A stretch of DNA of 64,000 nt, from the sequence record PX969468.1; one strand, written 5' to 3'. Every line of letters begins with the position of its first letter. Position 1 is the first letter of the stretch. A program made the translations under genes and the position numbers. The notes below the pieces were generated by a model. It made no database searches. It saw nothing but the letters and a program-made list of their open reading frames with translations, and was not told where the DNA came from. Shown in pieces: positions 36,465 to 46,798 of this stretch. This stretch comes from a phage.

Positions 36465-37748
36465 TTATTCCAGCACCTCCCAAGTGTCTGGGTTAACATT
36501 TCGGACGCAGATACCGACAGGGAATTGGTAGTTATTGTCTTCTGTCCTTGCTTGATATTTGAAGGTGACAAACTTGCCGATCATTTCCTGCATTCTGTCA
36601 TAGCTACGCTCCTCGTGCGTACCTTTCATCTTCATTTTAACAACAATACCTTCCTTGTCAACACAGATAAGAACACCTTCATCATTCTTATCTTTCTCAA
36701 CGTCAATAACTTTCACCTCTGCGTCGTTGAACTTTTTCCATTTCAATGCTTCAGATGTTCGCTGACCGTACTCGTATTTACCGCAGAAATTACGCATGAT
36801 AGTACCTTCATATCCTTCGGACATGAATATACCAACAGATTCTTCGCAATGATCAACTGTGTACGCAAGCTCTGCGTCAACAACCTTGATATGGTCAAGC
36901 ATCAGAGTGGTAACGGTATCCTCTGCATCCATAAGATCCTTGCAGCGTCCAGACTCTGTTTCTGGATCCCACCACACCTTGTCGCTAGGAATATCAAAAA
37001 TGTGATACTCCAGATCGTAGCTACAGTACCCACCGTAACGCAAATCATCACGAACAGGCTCAACATCGACAGGAATATCTACCTTGTTGAAGTTTTTGTA
37101 TGTTGATAAGCCTGCCTTAATTGCGGCATGACGGCGTTTTTTATCTGCCTCATAGTCTTTATCGATCTCGGCCTGAATCTCTTCCTGTGTGCGCCACCGT
37201 TTAGCAAGAGACACTATTTTCTGCAAAGGAAGACCATGAATGTATAGTTCCCCATCAAGTTGTTTAATCCCAGTGGTAGAATGGAAAGAACGAAGTTGCT
37301 CTAAAAGCTTTCCTTGAATAGGGTAGGACTTATTACCACGGGAAATAAATTTAGGCTCACCGTTTTGGAAAACAACTAGTAGACGAAGGCCATCTAACTT
37401 ACGCAAGATCCAGCAAGGTAATTTAAGTGCCTTTCCACGCTTCAGGTAGTCATGCACCAGCATGGGTAAAAGGTCAACACCCTGCTCGCAATCTTCCATA
37501 TTTTCAACATACCCCAGACGGACTTGTTTTTCCCACTTACTGATCGCTTCCAGCTCAGCCTGTTGCTCAGCTGTAGTTTCATTGGCACGACCCACGTTCT
37601 TAGGTGTGCAGATCGTCTCTTTGTATTGCAGTTTACCATCAAGCTTGCCAAACTCTACGATAACCTTATCACCATCCGTGAATACTTTCCACTGTTGGTA
37701 GCTGCCATCTTTATTCAGTGCGTACAGTGTTGTTTTGATTTGATGCAT
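36465..37748 (-). CDS. ATP-dependent DNA ligase
   Basis: Nucleotidyltransferase motifs KLDGLR (I), DGELY (III), EGYEGTIMR (IV), LKWKK (V). Confidence 0.65.
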   Translation of the reverse strand: MHQIKTTLYALNKDGSYQQWKVFTDGDKVIVEFGKLDGKLQYKETICTPKNVGRANETTAEQQAELEAISKWEKQVRLGYVENMEDCEQGVDLLPMLVHDYLKRGKALKLPCWILRKLDGLRLLVVFQNGEPKFISRGNKSYPIQGKLLEQLRSFHSTTGIKQLDGELYIHGLPLQKIVSLAKRWRTQEEIQAEIDKDYEADKKRRHAAIKAGLSTYKNFNKVDIPVDVEPVRDDLRYGGYCSYDLEYHIFDIPSDKVWWDPETESGRCKDLMDAEDTVTTLMLDHIKVVDAELAYTVDHCEESVGIFMSEGYEGTIMRNFCGKYEYGQRTSEALKWKKFNDAEVKVIDVEKDKNDEGVLICVDKEGIVVKMKMKGTHEERSYDRMQEMIGKFVTFKYQARTEDNNYQFPVGICVRNVNPDTWEVLE

Positions 37749-38312: not shown

Positions 38313-38376
38313 AACTTTCTACCTCACTTGCATACTTTCCTAAACAAGTAAAGCCGGGATCGCCCCGGCTATGTTA

Positions 38377-39090
38377 TTAAATATATTCTGTTACATCCTT
38401 GAAGCTTGAAGGCTTCATAATCTTACCTTTACTGTCGAGGAATATGATAACTTTATTTCCGTTGTAGAATTCTTCTTTAGCAACAAAACCTTCATAGCGA
38501 CCATCAAAGCGTCGCTCAAGATCTTTAATCTCCAACTCGATGAGTTGTTCAACAGGCATATCTGCACTGGCACCGTGTGAATACCGCAGATGGTTGACGC
38601 GTGCAAACTTGCTGTCATTAGATTTTAGAACCTTCCGCATCATCCCGCACACATCACCGCGAAGCTGGAACAGCAAAGCTGTTGACAACTCTGCTAAGCG
38701 GTAAGCAGACGCTCTTTGCTTAGAGGTATTTTTCGCAGCGATCAGTGTATCATAAAATTCACCGATCTTAAACTTAAGACCTCGCGGATTATCAAACAGG
38801 TTTGACCACTTTTCATGGTTATCGTTAACAAGATAAGCGGCATAACTTGTGACAACATGAAGATCGCAGGCCTCTTTTAGGAGATGATCCCCACCATCAC
38901 CTTTCTCCAACTCTTCCAAAACCTCATTGAACTCTTCCTCAATGAAACTCAGCTGAAGTTCGAATGGTGTGTATGATTTTTTCACTTTAGCTGCTACACG
39001 GTTCCAGTTTTCCACCCAGTTGGCAGACCAAAGGTAGTTTTCAGGCTGGGACAGTTTTTCCAGGTTGTCGATCAGTTTAGTATTCAGCAT
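38377..39090 (-). CDS. hypothetical protein (possible MazG-like NTP pyrophosphohydrolase)
   Basis: Acidic helical EE..E pattern (FIEEEFNEVLEELEKGDGGDHLLKEACDL); weak. Confidence 0.35.
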   Translation of the reverse strand: MLNTKLIDNLEKLSQPENYLWSANWVENWNRVAAKVKKSYTPFELQLSFIEEEFNEVLEELEKGDGGDHLLKEACDLHVVTSYAAYLVNDNHEKWSNLFDNPRGLKFKIGEFYDTLIAAKNTSKQRASAYRLAELSTALLFQLRGDVCGMMRKVLKSNDSKFARVNHLRYSHGASADMPVEQLIELEIKDLERRFDGRYEGFVAKEEFYNGNKVIIFLDSKGKIMKPSSFKDVTEYI

Positions 39091-39104
39091 TAAAAGGCCT
39101 CCGC

Positions 39105-39866
39105 TTACAGTTCCATAAAGTTTTCTACGATGTCAATAAATGTTTTATCAGAGAAAGCGTCAACCGCCCCGTTAAACCAAACTGGGATGCCGCGATCCTC
39201 ATATTGATAAAGGTCGCTACGTGAAATGCCGCTTCCATCTGCACTCTGCGAATCATACTTGTTTACAATCAGTAGTTTTGTGCCTTTACAAGTAGCAGGA
39301 AACAATTCCCAGTTAAAATTAATAACTGTGTTAGAACAACCCACCAGAATCACCATATCATTGCTGGTAAGAGATGTCAATAGGTCATACATGTCTGTAT
39401 ACTTAGGAGCAACCTCACCGAAGAACACCACATTGGGCTTAACCCAAGTATACTTGCCTGTATCTACCTCCGTGTATCCGATATTTTTAATTACATCATT
39501 ACCTTCAGCATCTTCGTAGGTGATTTCAGGCAAATACCCGTGGACATGTAAGATATCTTCATGTTTAACACCAGCACGCTCCAGCAAATCATCTATATTG
39601 GTTGTCAGGTTGATCACACGACCAGACCAACGTGAATACCACTCAGCGATCCGGAGATGTGCAAGGTTAGGATCAACACTGCCCAGAGCTACACGCCGTG
39701 CATTGTAAAAGTCATGCACCTTATAGTAGTTCTTGGCAAAGGTGTGGATGTTACACACCTCATCGATGCTGAAATTCTCCCACATTGCAGTTTGACCAGA
39801 ACGAAAAGTTGGGATCCCAGATTCTGCGCTCAAGCCAGCACCAGAAATAACAATAAGTCGTCGCAT
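39105..39866 (-). CDS. Sir2-family NAD-dependent enzyme
   Basis: ISGAGLSAESGIPTFRSG NAD-binding signature; 253 aa. Confidence 0.65.
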   Translation of the reverse strand: MRRLIVISGAGLSAESGIPTFRSGQTAMWENFSIDEVCNIHTFAKNYYKVHDFYNARRVALGSVDPNLAHLRIAEWYSRWSGRVINLTTNIDDLLERAGVKHEDILHVHGYLPEITYEDAEGNDVIKNIGYTEVDTGKYTWVKPNVVFFGEVAPKYTDMYDLLTSLTSNDMVILVGCSNTVINFNWELFPATCKGTKLLIVNKYDSQSADGSGISRSDLYQYEDRGIPVWFNGAVDAFSDKTFIDIVENFMEL

Positions 39867-39874
39867 AAATGTCC

Positions 39875-40225
39875 TTAGTAGATGTTTTGGTTGATCTCTA
39901 TTCCAAACTTCTTGAATGAGTCAGCAGCAAGCATAAATTTACGAGCCGCTGATGGGTTAGAAGTATGCACGAAAATCTTCACGTTGTCAACTACAGGAGG
40001 CTTACCAAATACAAATTTTTCCTCCAACATAGATAGGCAATCGTACCCTTCAAATACCTCTCCAAGATCGTTGTCCATGTGCCACTCAGAAACGCGCCTG
40101 TAGAGCTTTCCCTTATCGTTAATAAAATCCATAAACTCAGAGGAATTCTTTAGCCAAATAGCATCGGGGATCCCATAATTTGACGGATCTCTCAAGTCAT
40201 CCAGCCACACGATCAACTTCTTCAT
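39875..40225 (-). CDS. hypothetical protein
   Basis: Track ORF between the Sir2-like and RNA ligase genes. Confidence 0.45.
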   Translation of the reverse strand: MKKLIVWLDDLRDPSNYGIPDAIWLKNSSEFMDFINDKGKLYRRVSEWHMDNDLGEVFEGYDCLSMLEEKFVFGKPPVVDNVKIFVHTSNPSAARKFMLAADSFKKFGIEINQNIY

Positions 40226-41157
40226 TGCATATAGTCCTCGTTGTGGAAATAGCAGTCAAGTATCTCACGGCGTTCCTGCTCTAGGAGGCAGTTCCACACA
40301 TCTTCTGTGTAATTGTTACGAATGAAGTTTACCATGCCGTAAAACTCTTCGTCAATACGTTTAAAGATATCATCATCCCAAATCTTCCAAGCTTTACCCC
40401 TCATTACGGCCTTCCGTGCCAAATAGTATGGAGACTTGATCTTCAGCTGCAGATCATAAGGGTAGTAAGGCTTACGAATCATATACCCTTCACCTCTTGT
40501 TTCTGCAGCTAATTCTTTTGCATAGCTGAACGGAATTTCACGCACAGTGTGAGGACGTTTTGCACCAAGGTATTTGGCAATCCCATCTAAAGCTGCTTCT
40601 GGTAGCATTATTCCAGAATCATTATATCTGCAACCTATCAAATATGCGCCATGATCTTCCTGAACAATATGCGGATCTGAAGGGTGACAAATTTCAAACA
40701 TGAATGTCATGTTTTCATGGCCCATAACCTTCTTGATAAGATCTAAATTACCACATTGCTCCTGGATGGTTTCCTTTGCAAGGTTACAATATGGAGAATC
40801 AAGAGACCCGGTTGTTGAAAACAATAGTTCACCTTTATGAGATGATACCACACCAAGGAATCCGTTCTTTTTCTCTACCGCCGTCACAAGTTTATTGTCA
40901 GGCAGGTTGGTGGAGTTTTCTCCCAAATTAAACACTTTTGTGAAGGGCCATGCCACAACATTTCCTTCATTACCGACAACAATGCCTCGGCACTCTAGTA
41001 AACGCGGAGACAAATGCCATAAATTGTTGTAGAATACTTTTCTGGCATATTTGTAGATCTTTAATCCAAGATCTGGGTAATATCTGCTGGTTACAAGACC
41101 TTTGTCAACCAGGTCGTCTGCATTAAAATACTTCATCATACATTCCTCATTTGTCAT
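40222..41157 (-). CDS. RNA ligase-like nucleotidyltransferase
   Basis: Putative adenylylation motif VEKKNGFLGVV (KxxG); sits next to a polynucleotide kinase and separately from the DNA ligase. Confidence 0.45.
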   Translation of the reverse strand: MTNEECMMKYFNADDLVDKGLVTSRYYPDLGLKIYKYARKVFYNNLWHLSPRLLECRGIVVGNEGNVVAWPFTKVFNLGENSTNLPDNKLVTAVEKKNGFLGVVSSHKGELLFSTTGSLDSPYCNLAKETIQEQCGNLDLIKKVMGHENMTFMFEICHPSDPHIVQEDHGAYLIGCRYNDSGIMLPEAALDGIAKYLGAKRPHTVREIPFSYAKELAAETRGEGYMIRKPYYPYDLQLKIKSPYYLARKAVMRGKAWKIWDDDIFKRIDEEFYGMVNFIRNNYTEDVWNCLLEQERREILDCYFHNEDYMQ

Positions 41158-41200
41158 TTTGTCCCTTTATTCTGCCACACAAATAACCTGGTGTCAACAC

Positions 41201-41229
41201 TTGAAATTAACAAAACAGTTAGGTATACT
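41201..41229 (+). promoter_or_regulatory. sigma70-like promoter (TTGAAA-17-TATACT)
   Basis: Hexamers at 17-bp spacing, about 30 nt upstream of the first plus-strand gene. Confidence 0.5.
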
Positions 41230-41257
41230 CTCATTAAAATTAAAACGGAGAGTTACT

Positions 41258-41668
41258 ATGTCTAAAATGCTATATATCGTGCGTGGTCTACCAGGGTCTG
41301 GCAAATCAACACTGGCAAATGCGCTATCTTTAGAAGGTCTGTATCCACATTTTGAGAACGATATGTTCTGGTACGACGATGACGGCAATTACAATTGGGA
41401 TGCAAGTAAAGTAACACTTGCAGCAAAATGGTGCAAAGATAACGTAGAAGATATGATGCGTATGGGCTACGACCGTATCGTGGTAAGTAATACGTTTACA
41501 AAAGAAAAATATGTGCAAGAATATATTGACATGGCGATCAGTCATGGATATAGTTATACCGTGATCGTGGTTGAAAACCGCCATGGTAATAAAAGCATTC
41601 ATGATGTTCCAGACAGGGTTGTGGATCGTATGGAACGCCAGCTTAAAAACTGCATTAAACTTAAATGA
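41258..41668 (+). CDS. polynucleotide kinase-like P-loop kinase (Pnk kinase domain)
   Basis: LYIVRGLPGSGKSTLANAL resembles the T4 Pnkp kinase N-terminus; GGAGAG RBS. Confidence 0.55.
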   Translation: MSKMLYIVRGLPGSGKSTLANALSLEGLYPHFENDMFWYDDDGNYNWDASKVTLAAKWCKDNVEDMMRMGYDRIVVSNTFTKEKYVQEYIDMAISHGYSYTVIVVENRHGNKSIHDVPDRVVDRMERQLKNCIKLK

Positions 41669-41675
41669 GGAATGT

Positions 41676-42230
41676 ATGAAATACTTTGTAACAAGCGACA
41701 CACACTTTCTCCACCAGCGGGTAATGGAGTTCGACTCATGTCAAAAACACAGATCTCAGTATGATCACAATCTTGACAGTATGAATGCGGGAATCATCAC
41801 CAAGTGGAACTCTGTTGTGTCACCTGCAGACACTGTGTTTCACTTGGGGGATATTGCGTGCACTAATGATAAGAATATCAACAAATTGCTTCCAGATGTT
41901 CTAAATATGTTGAACGGACATATTATTCTTGTTCGTGGTAACCATGACACAAGGACGACTGTCAGAATTATGAAAGAGTTCGGTCATGAGGTTGTAGATT
42001 ATTACGAGCTTCGCCACAACAAGAATTTGATCTGTATGAGCCATTACCAGTTTGCAAAGTGGAACAGAAAGCCTCACGGATCAGTCCAACTGTTCGGTCA
42101 TGCTCACGGAACCACACAGCAGTTGTTTGGCAGGCAGTTTGATGTCGGTTGGGATGTGTGGGGGAGACTCTTACCATTAGAAGAGGCATACCGTATTGCA
42201 ATGAGTCTTGCTATTGACAGCGGGGAGTAA
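41676..42230 (+). CDS. calcineurin-like metallophosphoesterase
   Basis: Motifs DTHF, GDI and GNHD; GAGGAA RBS. Confidence 0.6.
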   Translation: MKYFVTSDTHFLHQRVMEFDSCQKHRSQYDHNLDSMNAGIITKWNSVVSPADTVFHLGDIACTNDKNINKLLPDVLNMLNGHIILVRGNHDTRTTVRIMKEFGHEVVDYYELRHNKNLICMSHYQFAKWNRKPHGSVQLFGHAHGTTQQLFGRQFDVGWDVWGRLLPLEEAYRIAMSLAIDSGE

Positions 42231-42277
42231 TCCCTGCTATTTTAAAGAAAATTGCCACACAAGGAGAATCAGGAGAT

Positions 42278-42628
42278 ATGAAAGATGAGGATAAGCTGCT
42301 ATATCTTAAAGTCCCCCTTGAAATACTGTCTATGTCAAAAGTTTTGAATGGCACAACTGGGGAGGTTGTTGTTCTTGACTTATATGACAAGATCGTATAC
42401 TGCTACCTGCACAACTGGTATAAGCTTGGAGAAAATTCACGCTTCACACCCAGCACCAGGAAAATTGCAGCAGATGTTGGGATAAAGAAAACAAAAGCAG
42501 CAGCGTGCGTTAAAACTTTAGAATGTGCAGGAGTGGTTGAAATATCCACACAAGGGAGAGGTAAAAGATGCACATTTTCCAAAGTTTTGCCACCAGAAGA
42601 AGTTATTCGAATGTCAACAACTGGTTAG
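42278..42628 (+). CDS. helix-turn-helix DNA-binding protein (putative regulator or initiator)
   Basis: HTH-like segment RKIAADVGIKKTKAAACVKTLECAGVV; directly upstream of the iteron array. Confidence 0.45.
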   Translation: MKDEDKLLYLKVPLEILSMSKVLNGTTGEVVVLDLYDKIVYCYLHNWYKLGENSRFTPSTRKIAADVGIKKTKAAACVKTLECAGVVEISTQGRGKRCTFSKVLPPEEVIRMSTTG

Positions 42629-42700
42629 ACCAGTAAAAACTTAAACATCTGTACTATAAGGATTTGTATGTTTTATGTTCACTCTGGAGCAGAAGTTAGT

Positions 42701-42785
42701 AACTGTCCGTGATACGGACACTACTGTCCGTCACGCGGACACATCTGCCCGTAATACGGACACTAACTGTCCGTGATACGGACAC
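42701..42785 (+). repeat. Four tandem 21-bp direct repeats, each with a 15-bp palindrome GTCCGT-N3-ACGGAC (iteron/operator array)
   Basis: Repeat cores at 42705-42719, 42726-42740, 42747-42761 and 42769-42783; 21-bp period. Confidence 0.7.
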
Positions 42786-42925
42786 ATAAAGAATATAACT
42801 AAAATAACTAAATAATAAAAAATAAAAGATCTAGTACTTATGGTACTAAAGTACATATACTTAACTTATGTAGAATATACTAGATCCTAAGTACCATGTT
42901 TTAAATTTATTACTTATTATGGGTA
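42786..42925 (+). other. AT-rich block with a 9-bp inverted repeat (GATCTAGTA ... TACTAGATC); possible DNA-unwinding element
   Basis: Strongly AT-rich by eye, directly after the iterons. Confidence 0.5.
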
Positions 42926-43160
42926 GTGTCGGCCCTTCATTGGCACTCGCCTACGAGGGGCGAGATGCCGGGCCTCCATAGTGCACACAATAACAGAAGT
43001 GCATACATGCAGGACTGTTAACATGTGTGGGAACGAAGCGATAGCGCAGGCCAAAGGCCGAGCACTAATGTGGACCACCGACGAAAGCTTGCCAGCGCCG
43101 GAAGGAGTCGGTTGAGAGCCTCCCGCGCGAGTTCGGATAAAGTTTATGTGTGGAAACTGA
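42926..43160 (+). other. GC-rich ORF-free segment; candidate structured non-coding RNA
   Basis: No ORF of 60 aa or more in any frame between 42628 and 43290; abrupt rise in GC; multiple stem-forming segments. Confidence 0.35.
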
Positions 43161-43289
43161 CAAGAAGGACCCTAAATCGCTCCACAGCTATATAAACTAT
43201 ACCAAGTAAGGCAATCGCACCAGTTTGATAGAAAAGCTCGTTACAAAGCGATACAGTGAGTTTTTCTATAACTTGAAGAGGAGGCTGCT

Positions 43290-43868
43290 ATGAGTTCACG
43301 CAAAGATGCCAGTGAAAAGATTGCAAAACGTTATCAGAATGAAGAACAGATGGAGAAAACTTTCAAGTGGAAGCCAGGTTTCCAGCGTAATCATTCTAAC
43401 GCTCGTGATCGTAAGCATCCTGATAAGTGGCTAACACCGCCAAATGATGGCATGCAGGTTGGTGATGAGAAGGAGCTATCACCTGGAAAAGATGGCAACT
43501 ACATTCGCACTAAGGACGCTAGTCCAAAGGATGACAGCTATCTTGTAGATAAGGTTCTTAATGGTATTGATGTAGATGTTGACACTACACGGAACTTTTT
43601 TCTTGGGTGGTATCGCACAGGTTTTTTCGACATCAAGGCCATTCGTCGTGTTTGTGATATTAAAAAGTCTGCATATGATGACGACTCGTTACATCGCACA
43701 CTGAGACAATATTCAGAAAGATATGGTCATCCGGTTATCACTCTTGACGATGTTAACGAAGTGATGTATCATGCAGAGGTTGTTGCAGGCAGATTTGGTG
43801 ATGCATATCTTGATATCCTTTCTGCAAACGATGAGGTAATGTTGAATAAGATTTACTACGAACGTTGA
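43290..43868 (+). CDS. hypothetical protein
   Basis: Track ORF; GAGGAGG RBS. Confidence 0.55.
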   Translation: MSSRKDASEKIAKRYQNEEQMEKTFKWKPGFQRNHSNARDRKHPDKWLTPPNDGMQVGDEKELSPGKDGNYIRTKDASPKDDSYLVDKVLNGIDVDVDTTRNFFLGWYRTGFFDIKAIRRVCDIKKSAYDDDSLHRTLRQYSERYGHPVITLDDVNEVMYHAEVVAGRFGDAYLDILSANDEVMLNKIYYER

Positions 43869-43878
43869 GGAGAGCTTA

Positions 43879-44067
43879 ATGAACAATCCGGTAGCAAAGA
43901 ATTGTAATAAGTTCAACAAGTCTGCAATTCACACTGACAGGAAAAAGAGCTGGTCACCGGACATTGACGAGGAGCTGGAGAATTACTTTGAAGATCTGGT
44001 TACCAATGCAGGCGAGGTTGCGATTAAAGAATACGCAGACAGGAGGGATAAGGCCGGAATCTGTTGA
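43879..44067 (+). CDS. hypothetical protein
   Basis: Track ORF; GAGGAG RBS. Confidence 0.45.
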   Translation: MNNPVAKNCNKFNKSAIHTDRKKSWSPDIDEELENYFEDLVTNAGEVAIKEYADRRDKAGIC

Positions 44068-44143
44068 CAAAAATAATGTTACCTGATAAGATCTGCAATA
44101 TGATGTGATACAATTTTAACTTACGAGGTCTACAGGTAATGCT

Positions 44144-44386
44144 ATGTTTAAGGTTAAGCTCGTTTTCCGTTCCATGAATGAGGATTATTTAGAAGATGAA
44201 GGTGAATTTCGTGCACTAGATGATGCAATAGATTTTGCCAACGACTTAGCTTGTATGAATACGGGTTATGGTTTATGTTGTTGGGATGGTGGTGTTCAGA
44301 TTGGTGATAGCAAGATCTTCTACTTCTACCCTGAGCCCGATAACAAACAAATTAAGTATGTTTTATTTATTTGTGCTTTACAATGA
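44144..44386 (+). CDS. hypothetical protein
   Basis: Track ORF. Confidence 0.45.
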   Translation: MFKVKLVFRSMNEDYLEDEGEFRALDDAIDFANDLACMNTGYGLCCWDGGVQIGDSKIFYFYPEPDNKQIKYVLFICALQ

Positions 44387-44399
44387 GGTTGTTTTCGTG

Positions 44400-44720
44400 T
44401 ATCATGATGAATATCCAATTTAAAGATGAGTTTGATGGCTTTATCTCCGGATGCTTTGAAACAGGGTTCGGAGAAGGCTGAGTTACCCTTAGAGGGCTTG
44501 ATAGTGCACCACACTTAAAATGGTAGGGGCAGCCAGCACATGACGATGTGACCCCAGCCAACCTGTAATAAGGTCGAGCCAGAGCGCGGTAATGGGTATC
44601 TGGTAACCCACTCGTTGGGTCTTGTTGGTCCAGGACGCTGGGCAAGTCGCAGGGAACACCACCCTGCGGCGAACTTGACAATCAGTATTTGCCGTGATAA
44701 AATCCACCTATCACGTGATA
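44400..44720 (+). other. GC-rich segment upstream of the tRNA cluster; candidate stable structured RNA
   Basis: Only mutually overlapping ORFs on both strands; GC-rich with hairpins such as CAGGG-aacaccac-CCCTG. Confidence 0.35.
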
Positions 44721-44731
44721 ATGGAGGAAAC

Positions 44732-45070
44732 ATGGCGGATACAACTAAAAAGCGTCGCCGTAGAGGCAGACCTCTGAAAGAGGAGTCCAACGCCATTCAG
44801 CTAGAGAAGAACATTCTTGATATGAAGGAATCTTTTATAGCGATGGTTCCAGAAGCTCACAAAGTTTTAAGAGAGCTGATGTTGGATCCGAAAACCAAGC
44901 AAAATATTCGTCAAAGCATTGCAGAGTATGTCCTTGATAAGGCAGACCGAATGCAGGAAGAATATGATGAGATGTTTGGTGAAGAGGAAGAGGTGGTAGT
45001 AGAAGAGGCTGAAAAACCAGCACCTTTTATGCCATTTACCACAGAGATACAGCCTGTTGGCAATAGTTAA
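44732..45070 (+). CDS. small basic protein with AT-hook-like KKRRRRGRP segment
   Basis: Start moved to the ATG preceded by GGAGG. Confidence 0.5.
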   Translation: MADTTKKRRRRGRPLKEESNAIQLEKNILDMKESFIAMVPEAHKVLRELMLDPKTKQNIRQSIAEYVLDKADRMQEEYDEMFGEEEEVVVEEAEKPAPFMPFTTEIQPVGNS

Positions 45071-45079
45071 AATATTTTC

Positions 45080-45108
45080 TTGACAAACTTTGCTTAACAG
45101 TGTAATAT
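45080..45108 (+). promoter_or_regulatory. sigma70 consensus promoter upstream of the tRNA cluster (TTGACA-17-TAATAT)
   Basis: Perfect -35, 17-bp spacer, near-consensus -10; about 60 nt before the first tRNA. Confidence 0.6.
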
Positions 45109-45166
45109 TATAAACATGGTCTCCCACCTTTTCTGGCGGCTCAGGTGTAAAAGAAAGCCACCCAGT

Positions 45167-45241
45167 GCCCTGTTAGCTTAGTGGATAAAGCAGCGGCCTT
45201 CTAAGCCGTTGACACTGGTTCGAGTCCAGTACGGGGTGCCA
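45167..45241 (+). tRNA. tRNA-Arg (anticodon TCT)
   Basis: Cloverleaf folded by eye: 7-bp acceptor stem, D-arm GCTT/AAGC, anticodon loop CTTCTAA, T-arm ACTGG-TTCGAGT-CCAGT, encoded CCA. Confidence 0.75.
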
Positions 45242-45245
45242 AATT

Positions 45246-45332
45246 GGGGAGTTATCCCGTAGAGGTAGCGGTGTAGACTGTAAATCTATTGTCATTGCGA
45301 CTCGGGTGGTTCGACTCCACCACTCCCCACCA
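45246..45332 (+). tRNA. tRNA-Tyr (anticodon GTA), type II with long variable arm
   Basis: Acceptor GGGGAGT/ACTCCCC, anticodon loop CTGTAAA, T-arm GGTGG-TTCGACT-CCACC, CCA. Confidence 0.75.
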
Positions 45333-45446
45333 AATTTATATTTTTAAATGCATAAATCATACAGATAATGACATTGATATTTATCGTCGTTTATACTAGT
45401 CACTAACTGCTCGAAAATCAGTGTCATTATCAGTGTAATTTATAAA

Positions 45447-45537
45447 GGAGGGTAGGGAGCAATGGTGCTCAAGCGGTCTTGAAAACCGTCCCGTTGAGGA
45501 TGACTCGATGATGGTTCGATTCCATTACTCTCCGCCA
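45447..45537 (+). tRNA. tRNA-Ser (anticodon TGA), type II
   Basis: Acceptor GGAGGGT/ACTCTCC, anticodon loop CTTGAAA, long variable arm, T-loop TTCGATT, CCA. Confidence 0.65.
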
Positions 45538-45635
45538 CATTGTTGACCTTGTAATTAAGCGAAAGCCGGAAGCAGAACCGGATTATCAAATGTTACAGTC
45601 GTCATCGCCGACTAGCCACATGGTCAACATATTGC

Positions 45636-45734
45636 GCTAGGTAAGCCCTTTGGCAAGGGCGAGGATTTTTAATCCTGAAAATAGACGAGGTAGTCGTTGA
45701 ATACATAGGTGGTTCGATTCCATCACCTAGCACC
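45636..45734 (+). tRNA. atypical tRNA-like gene (about 99 nt; Lys TTT-like anticodon loop; about 29-nt extra region); possible pseudogene
   Basis: Perfect 7-bp acceptor (GCTAGGT/ACCTAGC), D-arm, T-arm GGTGG-TTCGATT-CCATC, anticodon loop TTTTTAA with a 4-bp stem; insertion too long for a canonical type I tRNA; no full CCA. Confidence 0.35.
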
Positions 45735-45738
45735 TTTT

Positions 45739-45814
45739 GCTGATGTAGCACAATTGGCAGTGCAATTGATTTGTAATCAATAGGTTGCAGGTTCAAGTCC
45801 TGCCATCAGCACCA
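45739..45814 (+). tRNA. tRNA-Thr (anticodon TGT)
   Basis: Acceptor GCTGATG/CATCAGC, D-arm GCAC/GTGC, anticodon stem ATTGA/TCAAT, loop TTTGTAA, T-arm GCAGG-TTCAAGT-CCTGC, CCA. Confidence 0.8.
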
Positions 45815-45815
45815 T

Positions 45816-45890
45816 GGCCCTGTAGCTGGAAGGTTCAAGCAAGCGACTCATAATCGCCAGACGGTGGTTCAATTCCACCCAGGGCCACCA
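45816..45890 (+). tRNA. tRNA-Met or Ile2 (anticodon CAT)
   Basis: Acceptor GGCCCTG/CAGGGCC, anticodon loop CTCATAA, T-arm GGTGG-TTCAATT-CCACC, CCA; G1-C72 argues against initiator. Confidence 0.7.
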
Positions 45891-45901
45891 AATAATAAAT
45901 A

Positions 45902-45978
45902 CTCCGCGTAGCTCAGCTTGGTAGAGCGCCTGATTTGGGATCAGGAGGTCGAGTGTTCGAATCACTCCGTGGAGACCA
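45902..45978 (+). tRNA. tRNA-Pro (anticodon TGG)
   Basis: C1-G72 acceptor, D-arm GCTCAGCTTGGTAGAGC, anticodon stem CCTGA/TCAGG, loop TTTGGGA, T-arm GAGTG-TTCGAAT-CACTC, CCA. Confidence 0.8.
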
Positions 45979-46024
45979 CCTTTAGTTATACTTTAAATAT
46001 ATACACACAAAAGGAACCTTTAAA

Positions 46025-46294
46025 ATGTATACACTTAAAATTGTAGAACGTGTAAATCCAACCCATACTTTAGATCTTCGTGACGATTTCAACCCTCTTG
46101 CTGTAAATCTTCGAGAGTCGTATCATGAACTAAGCTGCGATGCAGTTGTGGTCTTCTTTGAAGACAACTCTGAAGGGGCAGTAGCTTGTGTTGTTGATAG
46201 CGAGCAGAAGTTTTATATTTACAGAGATGTGGATGCTTACTTGATGAATGAGAATGCGGTTACTGTCAGAATCATCCACCGAGTGCCTCGATAA
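46025..46294 (+). CDS. hypothetical protein
   Basis: Track ORF; AAGGAA RBS. Confidence 0.5.
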   Translation: MYTLKIVERVNPTHTLDLRDDFNPLAVNLRESYHELSCDAVVVFFEDNSEGAVACVVDSEQKFYIYRDVDAYLMNENAVTVRIIHRVPR

Positions 46295-46347
46295 GTATTA
46301 GTCTCCTTTTAGTTAGTTTCGATCTATTTAGGTTACTCAATTTTAAC

Positions 46348-46382
46348 CCGCCCCGTTAGCTGTATAGCTGCGGGGTTTTTTC
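46348..46382 (+). terminator. rho-independent terminator (GC hairpin plus TTTTTT)
   Basis: CCCCG...CGGGG stem followed by a T6 run downstream of CDS 46025..46294. Confidence 0.55.
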
Positions 46383-46399
46383 GTTTCTGGAGCCTTAAA

Positions 46400-46798
46400 A
46401 TGATTTCAGTCTTAACATTGATGAGTAAATACAGAGGGATCATAAAAGGTTTAGTTTTTGCAGCGGCTATAGGCATGGCTTATCTTGGGGCCGTGTATTG
46501 GTTTAACTCTAAGCTCAATGATGCTTATCAGGAAGGTGTGTCAGCAACAGAGTTAAAGTGGGAACGGATCCTTGACCAACAACAAAAGCAGGCCGACAAA
46601 ATTAAAATGGGCCACGCAGAGGAGGTTAAAAACCTTGAAAAATCTCTTTCTGATCTACAGGATAAATTAAATATGGCTGAGAAGGCAGGTAAAGAAAAGC
46701 AGATTATCTACCTCCAATCTCCTGAAGGTAAGAAGTCAACACTTCCTGATCAGCTAATAGATATTTATAATGAGAGTATCAATCAGGAGGTTCGATGA
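46400..46798 (+). CDS. i-spanin (Rz-like): N-terminal TM helix plus periplasmic coiled coil
   Basis: TM segment GLVFAAAIGMAYLGAVYWF then charged coiled-coil; immediately followed by a lipoprotein gene. Confidence 0.6.
   Translation: MISVLTLMSKYRGIIKGLVFAAAIGMAYLGAVYWFNSKLNDAYQEGVSATELKWERILDQQQKQADKIKMGHAEEVKNLEKSLSDLQDKLNMAEKAGKEKQIIYLQSPEGKKSTLPDQLIDIYNESINQEVR

Follow-up and report, generated by a model that had tools for sequence, protein, structure and literature searches.

Why would a phage set the gene of an NAD+-dependent Sir2-like enzyme (a sirtuin) beside the genes of enzymes that mend broken RNA, and what could such a combination accomplish during infection? The question is raised by a locus of the phage sequence record PX969468.1, located at positions 39105–42230 of a 64,000-nucleotide stretch of this DNA, the whole of which is hereafter called the window. 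In an initial annotation made from the letters alone, five open reading frames (ORFs) had been read here as an RNA ligase-like enzyme, a polynucleotide kinase, a metallophosphoesterase, a Sir2-like enzyme and a 116-aa protein without assignment. All five are present at the coordinates then given, and Pfam searches place the first four in the RNA ligase, AAA_33, Metallophos and SIR2 families, in each case above the curated cut-off. We consider it fairly likely that the locus is a phage RNA break-repair cassette, made of a three-enzyme core (kinase, phosphoesterase and Rnl1-type ligase) and a three-enzyme accessory branch (sirtuin, cREC protein and MazG-like protein) and dispensable on a laboratory host. 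Taken by itself, the heal-and-seal function of the core is probable and can be proposed with some confidence; that the sirtuin performs a 2′-phosphotransferase step is a tentative proposal.

Gene arrangement and relatives

The genes and signals of the cassette, followed by two nearby features to which reference is made below, are:

38352–38370, minus strand: terminator-like hairpin, 8-bp stem with six G–C pairs and a T-rich tail (consensus scan)
38377–39090, minus strand: MazG-like protein, 237 aa, closing the leftward unit of four genes
39105–39866, minus strand: Sir2-like sirtuin, 253 aa
39875–40225, minus strand: cREC domain protein, 116 aa
40222–41157, minus strand: Rnl1-family RNA ligase, 311 aa, opening the leftward unit
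41158–41257, no strand: divergent control region, 100 bp, with back-to-back sigma-70-like promoter matches (consensus scan)
41258–41668, plus strand: P-loop polynucleotide-kinase-like protein, 136 aa
41676–42230, plus strand: calcineurin-type binuclear metallophosphoesterase, 184 aa, candidate 3′-end healing enzyme
36465–37748: separate ATP-dependent DNA ligase, a few kb from the cassette
45167–45978: tRNA cluster

The sirtuin gene and the 116-aa ORF do lie in one minus-strand run, as had been stated, and this run extends further, to a sixth, MazG-like gene that had not been noted before; with this gene and the hairpin that follows it, the feature spans approximately 38352–42230. All six genes are contained within 3.9 kb and a purine-rich Shine-Dalgarno-like motif is found upstream of each of the five ORFs described initially. 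The leftward unit is tightly packed, the ligase and cREC genes overlapping by 4 nt and being followed by gaps of 8 nt (cREC to sirtuin) and 14 nt (sirtuin to MazG-like), while the hairpin begins 6 nt past the MazG-like stop codon and probably represents the 3′ end of the unit; the number of terminator-like sites in the region is not above that expected from shuffled sequence. In the rightward direction 7 nt separate the kinase from the phosphoesterase, the true start of the former being placed inside the mechanical ORF 41102–41668, which yields the length of the corresponding FV3 coding sequence, and that of the latter inside the mechanical ORF 41571–42230. As pattern matches only, the control region offers a leftward promoter (TTGACA at 41197, CAGAAT at 41169, with an extended TG) and a rightward one (TTGAAA at 41201, TATACT at 41229). 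A stronger match (11/12) was returned by the consensus scan within the kinase gene at 41526–41554, a place that corresponds to the sigma-70 promoter “P80” annotated in the rV5 record.

The ratio of non-synonymous to synonymous substitution rates (dN/dS) in comparison with FV3 and rV5 is 0.01–0.23 for all six genes, indicating strong purifying selection and thus that the ORFs of the cassette are real genes and not chance ORFs. The synonymous rate is itself uneven: that of the sirtuin relative to FV3 is 0.62 (flanking genes 0.03–0.32) and that of cREC relative to rV5 is 0.69 (neighbours 0.10–0.32), whereas dN/dS stays low throughout these patches (0.05–0.11) and bands of sequence identity display the same split. 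This gene-sized mosaicism suggests allelic exchange of exactly sirtuin and cREC among Vequintaviruses.

A 4.4-kb region including the cassette is 95–98% identical to that of ECP26, of FV3, of rV5 relatives and of ~120 other Vequintavirus records, and close relatives already annotate an RNA ligase, a Sir2-like protein, an ATPase/polynucleotide kinase, a phosphoesterase and a nucleotide pyrophosphohydrolase. Furthermore, a 2022 survey (Iyer, Burroughs, Anantharaman & Aravind, Viruses 14:1977, PMC9503650) described a “type 2” sirtuin RNA-repair neighbourhood, with Escherichia phage V5 and Proteus phage Mydo as prototypes, composed of a sirtuin, a T4-like RNA ligase, cREC, a nucleotide kinase, a pyrophosphatase of the MazG superfamily and an “occasional” calcineurin-like phosphoesterase, and proposed that the sirtuin removes an RNA 2′-phosphate, as do Tpt1/KptA. 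With its six genes in 3.9 kb of a Vequintavirus window, and with V5 named in that paper, the present locus is of this type: the component list, the genus and the role proposed for the sirtuin coincide and nothing substantive differs, the earlier proposal being a computational prediction. That a sirtuin is paired with an RNA ligase, which the initial annotation regarded as unusual, had therefore been published for V5 together with the same 2′-phosphate hypothesis (PMC9503650), so that neither the cassette, already annotated and interpreted in rV5-like phages, nor the idea linking the sirtuin to RNA repair is new. A literature search for a biochemical test of the sirtuin/cREC idea, or for a study of a Vequintavirus ligase, yielded nothing beyond the 2022 survey, one survey of jumbo phages, reviews and descriptions of genomes. 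What is added here are residue-level checks, the operon layout and survey numbers that separate the core from the lineage-restricted genes.

Among the records that match across this region at 95% identity or more to the E. coli Vequintaviruses are ~18–25 entries named “Campylobacter phage” (MG065645–MG065690; host Campylobacter jejuni), which are probably mislabelled or derived from contaminating coliphages.

A probable RNA heal-and-seal core

The product of 40222–41157 is an Rnl1-family, ATP-dependent RNA ligase, as judged from profile matches and conserved residues. It matches Pfam RNA_lig_T4_1 (PF09511) with 55.7 bits (cut-off 28.3) over profile positions 1–227 of 227, and phrog_562 with E 1.8e-66. 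Searches of the solved structures with the single sequences of the ligase, the kinase and cREC gave nothing meaningful and family profiles were needed; when a profile built from 28 diverse homologues of the ligase was compared to all sequences of the Protein Data Bank (PDB), T4 Rnl1 (2C5U, 9DO4) was retrieved with E 1e-12 and no other ligase was found. Ten residues invariant in the 28 homologues (R57, K74, F76, K96, G99, E155, E223, G224, K239 and K241) align in 2C5U to R54, K75, F77, K99, G102, E159, E227, G228, K240 and K242 of T4 Rnl1, respectively, K96 being the nucleotidyltransferase lysine of motif I (K-x-x-G). The T4 residues reportedly found to be essential by mutagenesis in the Shuman laboratory are these ten and K119, so that 10 of 11 positions are kept. 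The possibilities that the protein is a DNA ligase or a capping enzyme, either of which would have undermined the initial assignment, were rejected, the profile matching Rnl1 only and a separate DNA ligase gene being present at 36465–37748.

The kinase scores 41.1 bits with AAA_33 (cut-off 27) and matches phrog_2071 (E 2e-58) and phrog_505, “polynucleotide kinase” (E 3e-10). A profile of six sequences finds, as its longest-aligning solved relatives, polynucleotide kinases of RNA repair: the kinase domain of Clostridium thermocellum Pnkp (CthPnkp; 4GP7, E 1.2e-5, positions 5–134), T4 Pnk (1LY1, E 1.1e-4; 1LTQ, E 2.4e-4) and Capnocytophaga Pnkp1 (4XRP, E 2.3e-4). Its invariant residues comprise the P-loop (G10, G13, G15, K16 and S17), E33 and D35, and the stretch E106, N107, R108, H109 and G110; Asp35 presumably stands at the position of the general base of T4 Pnk. 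At 136 aa it is a stand-alone protein and carries no T4-type fusion to a HAD (DxDxT) 3′-phosphatase, the adjoining gene encoding instead the calcineurin-type metallophosphoesterase. The latter scores 28.5 bits with Metallophos_2 (cut-off 27) and 27.8 bits with Metallophos (cut-off 21.5), matches phrog_547 (E 5e-51) and has the six metallophosphoesterase motifs (DxH, GD, GNH[D/E], H, GH and GHxH) intact, D8-x-H10, G58 and D59, G88, N89 and H90, H123, G141 and H142, and H144 being invariant in six orthologues.

The linkage of the three genes was followed in 80 IMG/VR loci containing a relative of the ligase (37–89% identity), which fall into 32 clusters at 60% ligase identity; six-frame ORFs were scanned with profiles of the six proteins and partners within 10 kb were recorded. 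Both this survey and a second one, comprising 80 IMG/VR loci centred on the sirtuin clade, were limited to at most 80 loci, some of them on truncated contigs. The partners found near the ligase are:

kinase: 63 of 80 loci, 29 of 32 clusters; 61 loci within 3 kb
phosphoesterase: 62 of 80 loci, 30 of 32 clusters; 60 loci within 3 kb
DNA ligase: 24 of 80 loci, 9 of 32 clusters
MazG-like: 12 of 80 loci, 3 of 32 clusters
sirtuin: 11 of 80 loci, 3 of 32 clusters
cREC: 10 of 80 loci, 3 of 32 clusters

Restricting the count to the 40 ligase loci whose two flanks each reach 6 kb or more gives kinase 35, phosphoesterase 34, sirtuin 9 and cREC 7. The separation of a widespread core, composed of kinase, phosphoesterase and ligase, from lineage-restricted additions, namely sirtuin, cREC and MazG, is robust. 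The genomes inspected individually agree: the triad forms an unbroken run in Mydovirus, Henunavirus, Phapecoctavirus and Pakpunavirus and in three metagenomic contigs; Mydovirus KB57 and Henunavirus Hena1 retain all, or almost all, of the six genes, in another order and on a single strand; Phapecoctavirus ESCO5 has cREC, phosphoesterase, ligase, kinase and MazG together, and Pakpunavirus JG004 and the three metagenomic contigs have the triad only. Finally, kinase and ligase are fused in one ORF, ~430 aa long in ten cases, in 11 IMG/VR loci of environmental viral contigs (L052, L055, L057–L059, L061, L063 and L065–L068); this natural fusion supports a functional coupling of the two activities, and no homologous phosphoesterase was detected in any of these 11 loci.

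The heal-and-seal interpretation, already advanced in the initial annotation, is thus well supported because an Rnl1-type ligase is accompanied by a kinase whose relatives belong to RNA repair, and it is reinforced by the linkage of the triad in 29–30 of the 32 ligase clusters. Some properties of the three proteins count against it. The invariant Thr116 of the ligase aligns to the T4 residue K119; its score with the T4 RnlA equivalog TIGR02308 is 39 bits (cut-off 242); and no match to the C-terminal domain of T4 RnlA, which confers tRNA specificity, is detectable, the profile alignment covering T4 residues 50–249 only. The kinase resembles the solved polynucleotide kinases only modestly (E 1e-5 to 2e-4), and the best solved relative of the phosphoesterase is the uncharacterised Aquifex aq_1665 (1XM7, profile E 5.5e-17). 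With 63 aa fewer than T4 Rnl1 (311 vs 374 aa), a missed equivalog and an alignment ending at T4 residue 249, the ligase is to be considered a member of the Rnl1 family and not an equivalent of T4 RnlA.

Insertion data are available for the Vequintavirus Bas54, whose gene order is identical and whose genes are nearly equal in length to those of the cassette, which corresponds to bas54_0206–0211. In a 2025 transposon preprint (doi 10.1101/2025.11.20.689424) these genes carry insertions at 76–96% of their TA sites, and on E. coli K-12 five of the six are called non-essential and cREC “Intermediate”. This dispensability on K-12 fits a conditional, counter-defence role. T4 pseT and rnlA mutants likewise grow on ordinary hosts. 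On the other side, the comparison rows examined from the same preprint, for hosts not specified here, show no significant depletion of the cassette genes (q ≥ 0.75; doi 10.1101/2025.11.20.689424).

The sirtuin, cREC and MazG-like proteins

The sirtuin scores 99.2 bits with SIR2 (PF02146, cut-off 24), matches phrog_2162 (E 7e-108) and belongs to a clade present in 988 phage records. Its closest solved relative by sequence is E. coli CobB (1S5P, E 2e-21), followed by SIRT5, and the same order is given by Foldseek for an AF2 model (pLDDT 89.6), the best matches being CobB (TM 0.72–0.84) and then SIRT5. Every NAD+/catalytic motif is retained together with the class-III Y-x-x-R, the residues invariant in 24 phage homologues being G9, A10 and G11, S16, F21 and R22, Y54-x-x-R57, N90 and D92, H109 and G110, F148, F149 and E151, and G176, S178 and N179. 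On the other hand, none of the four zinc-binding cysteines is found in segment 112–147, C38 being the only cysteine invariant in the 24 homologues, and the protein stays well below the CobB equivalogs (NF040867, NF001755 and related models; 105 vs 320 and 96 vs 318 bits) and the CobB subfamily model (124 vs 243 bits). No protein of the locus matches the Tpt1/KptA family, to which the sirtuin, a Rossmann-fold enzyme, is unrelated.

The 116-aa ORF, left without a function by the initial annotation, matches cREC_REC (PF20274, “cyclic-phosphate processing receiver”) with 54.3 bits (cut-off 27). With its receiver fold, its conserved acidic phosphate pocket and no histidine-kinase partner, it has the features of the cREC family and is predicted to be a cyclic-phosphate-processing enzyme; the family itself is experimentally uncharacterised (PMC9503650). 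The MazG assignment is the weakest of the set. The protein matches phrog_671, “nucleotide pyrophosphohydrolase” (E 5.5e-22), has no match in Pfam or NCBIfam and finds HisE as its best profile match in the PDB with a non-significant E of 0.17 over the motif region, so that the MazG label rests on PHROGs and on the 2022 paper; E52, E53, E56 and D76, which make up the acidic EExxE...D metal motif, are conserved in three orthologues, among them those of Mydovirus and Henunavirus, and dN/dS is 0.01–0.05.

As a partner of the ligase the sirtuin is accessory and lineage-restricted (3 of 32 clusters), although in three Vequintavirinae genera it lies ~2 kb or less from ligase and kinase notwithstanding changes in gene order. 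Seen from the sirtuin clade, ligase and kinase are each found in 12 of 80 loci and cREC in 10, two of the latter, on contigs of 109 and 360 kb, being without ligase. A HAD_SAK_2-like RNA-repair phosphatase, homologous to a protein of phage SP15, adjoins the sirtuin in 28 of 80 loci at a median gap of 151 bp, and at least one RNA-end-processing neighbour is present in 43. These data independently reproduce the three neighbourhood types of the 2022 survey. A 161-aa protein that occupies the cREC position in Hena1 and the genes beside the phAPEC8 sirtuin gave no informative Pfam match.

Two RefSeq names in these neighbourhoods are misannotations: the ESCO5 cREC gene (L017, 7603–7947) is called “putative RNA ligase and tail attachment protein” and the SP15 HAD_SAK_2 phosphatase gene (L003, 9142–9648) “Sir2 (NAD-dependent deacetylase)”.

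A proposed mechanism

From protein families, intact catalytic residues and gene linkage we infer the following scheme of activities, substrate and sirtuin function. In the core, the kinase would phosphorylate 5′-OH RNA ends, the metallophosphoesterase would clear 2′,3′-cyclic, 3′- or 2′-phosphates to leave a 3′-OH and the Rnl1-type ligase, adenylylated on Lys96, would seal the break, the substrates being likely tRNAs or other RNAs cut by metal-independent ribonucleases of the host, such as anticodon nucleases and toxin RNases. In the accessory branch, restricted to rV5-like phages and encoded by three genes sharing a packed leftward unit with the ligase, cREC may open the 2′,3′-cyclic phosphate to a 2′-phosphate and/or open ADP-ribose 1″,2″-cyclic phosphate. 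The sirtuin could then use NAD+ to strip the 2′-phosphate from RNA in a Tpt1/KptA-like manner, a phosphate oxygen attacking C1″ of NAD+ and the ribose 2″-OH, activated by His109, attacking in turn the phosphorus; disposal of a nucleotide by-product would fall to the MazG-like enzyme.

The reactions of sirtuins and of Tpt1 are formally parallel, since in both an oxygen nucleophile attacks C1″ of NAD+, nicotinamide is expelled and the ribose 2″-OH attacks the transferred group. As the class-III Tyr/Arg pair binds an anionic group, 2′-phosphotransfer by this sirtuin is chemically reasonable. In its most specific form, the proposal makes the sirtuin a non-orthologous replacement of Tpt1/KptA, in which Tyr54 and Arg57 would hold the phosphate and His109 would drive formation of ADP-ribose 1″-2″ cyclic phosphate, and makes cREC a receiver-fold cyclic phosphodiesterase that would feed or clear this reaction; we regard this combination as speculative, a shade less likely than the 2′-phosphotransferase step alone. 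If true, this would be the first sirtuin acting on a nucleic-acid 2′-phosphate rather than on acyl-lysine and the phage would hold a T4-like and a yeast-like route of RNA repair together. The reading as a Tpt1 replacement has been in print since 2022 and would be novel only as a demonstrated activity.

Several observations weigh against an RNA-directed sirtuin. A phosphoesterase able to strip the 2′-phosphate would make a Tpt1-like step unnecessary, and E. coli has a KptA of its own. No RNA-repair neighbour is detectable by the profiles used in 37 of 80 sirtuin loci, and in 29 of the 32 ligase clusters the triad does without sirtuin, cREC and MazG. Furthermore, no sirtuin is found within 9 kb of the ESCO5 cassette, and the 8 kb around the phAPEC8 sirtuin contain no cassette gene. 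The RNA-related reading is kept alive mainly by the 43 loci with RNA-end neighbours, and the role of the sirtuin stays uncertain because of the other 37 and of the separation seen in Phapecoctavirus.

Weighing the alternatives

The alternative that survives best, and which seems to us about as plausible as the 2′-phosphotransferase step itself, is that the sirtuin is an ordinary protein-directed enzyme, either a desuccinylase/deacetylase resembling CobB and SIRT5 or a protein ADP-ribosyltransferase, that retunes host or phage proteins and owes its RNA-repair neighbours to ancestry and to the clustering of early genes. Deacylases are indeed its closest relatives in sequence and predicted fold, and it keeps the class-III Y-x-x-R motif, which we take to bind the succinyl/malonyl carboxylate. 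The presence of the triad without a sirtuin in most ligase clusters likewise agrees with a separate function, as do the many among the 988 records in which no ligase is near, such as KVP40, SE131, phAPEC8, three metagenomic contigs and the 37 IMG/VR loci just mentioned. However, the CobB equivalogs are missed by a wide margin, and no member of the clade retains the zinc cysteines of the small domain that faces the substrate, which argues for an altered substrate site. Ancestry alone, moreover, hardly explains why 43 of 80 loci adjoin RNA-end enzymes of three different kinds (the Rnl1 module, HAD_SAK_2 and cREC), and in the window the gene lies 8 nt behind cREC within the transcription unit of the ligase.

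An unlikely alternative is that sirtuin, cREC and MazG form a separate NAD+/ADP-ribose-metabolite module, directed against host immune signalling nucleotides or ADP-ribose adducts and merely co-located with the repair genes in a counter-defence island. It draws on the two jumbo-size contigs (L163 and L166) in which cREC stands beside the sirtuin without ligase, and on the cREC–Nudix fusions reported in the 2022 survey, where processing of ADP-ribose 1″-2″ cyclic phosphate was predicted (PMC9503650). It also draws on NAD+ salvage genes, encoding nicotinamide/nicotinate phosphoribosyltransferase (NAMPT) and ribose-phosphate pyrophosphokinase (Prs), found a few kb from the cassette in three genera:

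Mydovirus KB57, 454–2995 of L002: NAD+ salvage genes
Henunavirus Hena1, 614–3357 of L005: NAD+ salvage genes
Pakpunavirus JG004, 8325–11160 of L018: NAD+ salvage genes

The Pakpunavirus has these genes with no sirtuin in the 7-kb flanks examined, and none is annotated in the part of FV3 that corresponds to the window. No signalling-nucleotide enzyme family was detected at the locus, and in Phapecoctavirus cREC and MazG accompany the triad, within 9 kb of which no sirtuin is found, so that sirtuin, cREC and MazG do not behave as one unit; moreover, the cREC gene overlaps the stop codon of the ligase gene, which suggests co-expression with the ligase.

It is more improbable still that kinase and phosphoesterase heal DNA ends (3′-phosphate and 5′-OH) on behalf of the neighbouring ATP-dependent DNA ligase, RNA not being their main substrate. 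A DNA ligase gene does lie a few kb away, both here and in a minority of the surveyed loci and clusters, T4 Pnkp acts on DNA ends too, and the phosphoesterase weakly resembles the ligase-associated PdeM, with a sub-threshold 20.6 bits (cut-off 150). Yet the RNA ligase (29–30 of 32 clusters) is a much more constant companion of the two healing enzymes than the DNA ligase (9 of 32), 11 loci encode kinase and RNA ligase as a fusion, and T4 Rnl1 alone among the solved structures is matched by the ligase profile.

That the ligase serves mainly as a catalyst of tail-fibre attachment, the second activity of T4 gp63, is suggested only by the transferred annotation “RNA ligase 1 and tail attachment protein” of many records and was rejected as extremely improbable, since its similarity to T4 Rnl1 is limited to the nucleotidyltransferase domain, its gene lies among early and nucleotide-metabolism genes beside kinase and phosphoesterase and not among tail genes, and, in the transposon preprint (doi 10.1101/2025.11.20.689424), the Bas54 orthologue is non-essential with insertions at 93% of its TA sites while the N-terminal domain of T4 rnlA is insertion-intolerant.

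Comparison with known systems and significance

The RNA break-repair cassette proposed here resembles the T4 pair Pnkp (pseT) and Rnl1 (rnlA), which repairs tRNA in answer to the anticodon nuclease PrrC, in combining a 5′ kinase, 3′-end healing and an Rnl1-family ligase and in being dispensable on ordinary laboratory hosts. It differs in that 3′ healing in T4 is entrusted to a HAD phosphatase fused to the kinase, whereas here the candidate is a separate calcineurin-type metallophosphoesterase; the T4 ligase has 374 aa and that of the cassette 311, with Thr in place of Lys119 and no C-terminal-domain match, and the cREC, sirtuin and MazG genes are additional to the T4 pathway.

With Pnkp–Hen1 of C. 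thermocellum the cassette shares the use of a P-loop polynucleotide kinase and a binuclear metallophosphoesterase together with an ATP-dependent ligase; no other solved structure is aligned over so great a length by the kinase profile as the CthPnkp kinase domain (4GP7), whose E-value is nearly the best. CthPnkp, however, is one trifunctional polypeptide with a ligase domain of another clade and has the 2′-O-methyltransferase Hen1 as partner; three separate genes and an Rnl1-type ligase set the cassette apart from this type, and in the stretch bounded by the DNA ligase gene and the regulator gene that follows the phosphoesterase neither Hen1 nor another methyltransferase was found.

The accessory branch would share with the fungal/plant tRNA ligase Trl1/AtRNL (ligase, kinase and 2H cyclic phosphodiesterase), followed by the NAD+-dependent 2′-phosphotransferase Tpt1, the order of steps, that is, opening of the cyclic phosphate to a 2′-phosphate, 5′ phosphorylation, sealing and NAD+-dependent removal of the 2′-phosphate, from which ADP-ribose 1″-2″ cyclic phosphate results as by-product. 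The corresponding parts are non-homologous, with cREC here in the place of 2H and the sirtuin in that of Tpt1, the whole branch could be bypassed by the phosphoesterase, and the Trl1 ligase domain is not among the solved structures matched by the ligase profile at E up to 1. As to the class III sirtuins E. coli CobB and human SIRT5 (lysine deacetylase/desuccinylase), the phage sirtuin has in common with them GAG-x-S, F-R, N-x-D, the catalytic His–Gly, the FGE-type motif and Y-x-x-R; it differs in its 24–27% identity, in the loss of the zinc Cys4 throughout the phage clade and in its genomic partners, which are RNA-end enzymes and not acyl-CoA or protein-acylation genes.

Defences that cleave tRNAs and other RNAs are common in bacteria and, to our knowledge, phage countermeasures other than T4 Pnkp/Rnl1 and phage-borne tRNAs are poorly characterised. 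With its triad in 29–30 of 32 clusters, the cassette looks like a widespread alternative to T4 Pnkp/Rnl1 as an answer to RNA cleavage. Should sirtuin and cREC act on 2′-phosphate or cyclic-phosphate ends of RNA, the chemistry of sirtuins would reach nucleic acids, the receiver fold would acquire a catalytic role, and the occurrence of a zinc-less sirtuin in about a thousand phage genomes would become easier to explain. The interest of the locus lies in this easily testable question of what the zinc-less sirtuin and cREC do.

Other features of the window

The cassette had been described as lying next to the tRNA cluster, which is correct only in a loose sense: the first tRNA, at 45167, is 2.9 kb beyond the phosphoesterase, and between them come the gene of a regulator, an array of iterons and several small ORFs. 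tRNA genes are near the cassette only in Vequintavirus and Phapecoctavirus, two of the eight lineages checked, and a conserved linkage between cassette and tRNA cluster was rejected.

The regulator gene (42278–42628) encodes a 116-aa helix-turn-helix (HTH) protein (HTH_36; “replication initiation protein” in PHROGs). Directly downstream, within an ORF-free gap (42629–43289), are four tandem 21–22-nt iterons (TAACTGTCCGTGATACGGACAC) at 42700–42785, each of which holds the inverted repeat GTCCGT...ACGGAC; the array is a candidate iteron origin or operator, and the GC skew changes sign at ~41–42 kb.

A search of 42200–46500 with Rfam found no RNA besides tRNAs. Inside the tRNA cluster lies a tRNA-like gene of 97–99 nt (45636–45734, plus strand; Rfam tRNA, 35.5 bits) whose variable region, at ~27 nt, is unusually long and includes an extra arm of 5 bp. 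The Infernal alignment gives it an anticodon loop of 7 nt, UUUUUAA, and ARAGORN calls a 4-base anticodon; the anticodon may be read as UUU (Lys), or as UUA if shifted by one. In 116 related phage records the gene is conserved at 95% or more, under the name tRNA-OTHER, tRNA-TERM or tRNA-Lys or without being annotated. Since tRNA-Lys(UUU) is a classic target of anticodon nucleases, its product could be a resistant substitute or a decoy.

Lastly, an ORF-poor stretch of ~2.2 kb at ~590–2850, where the GC skew flips, corresponds by linear coordinate mapping to an unannotated gap of FV3 (104328–106594) between divergent units. According to the Bas54 study, a ~2-kb intergenic region between oppositely transcribed genes tolerates no insertions (doi 10.1101/2025.11.20.689424); this region is probably the same stretch, which would imply an essential non-coding function.

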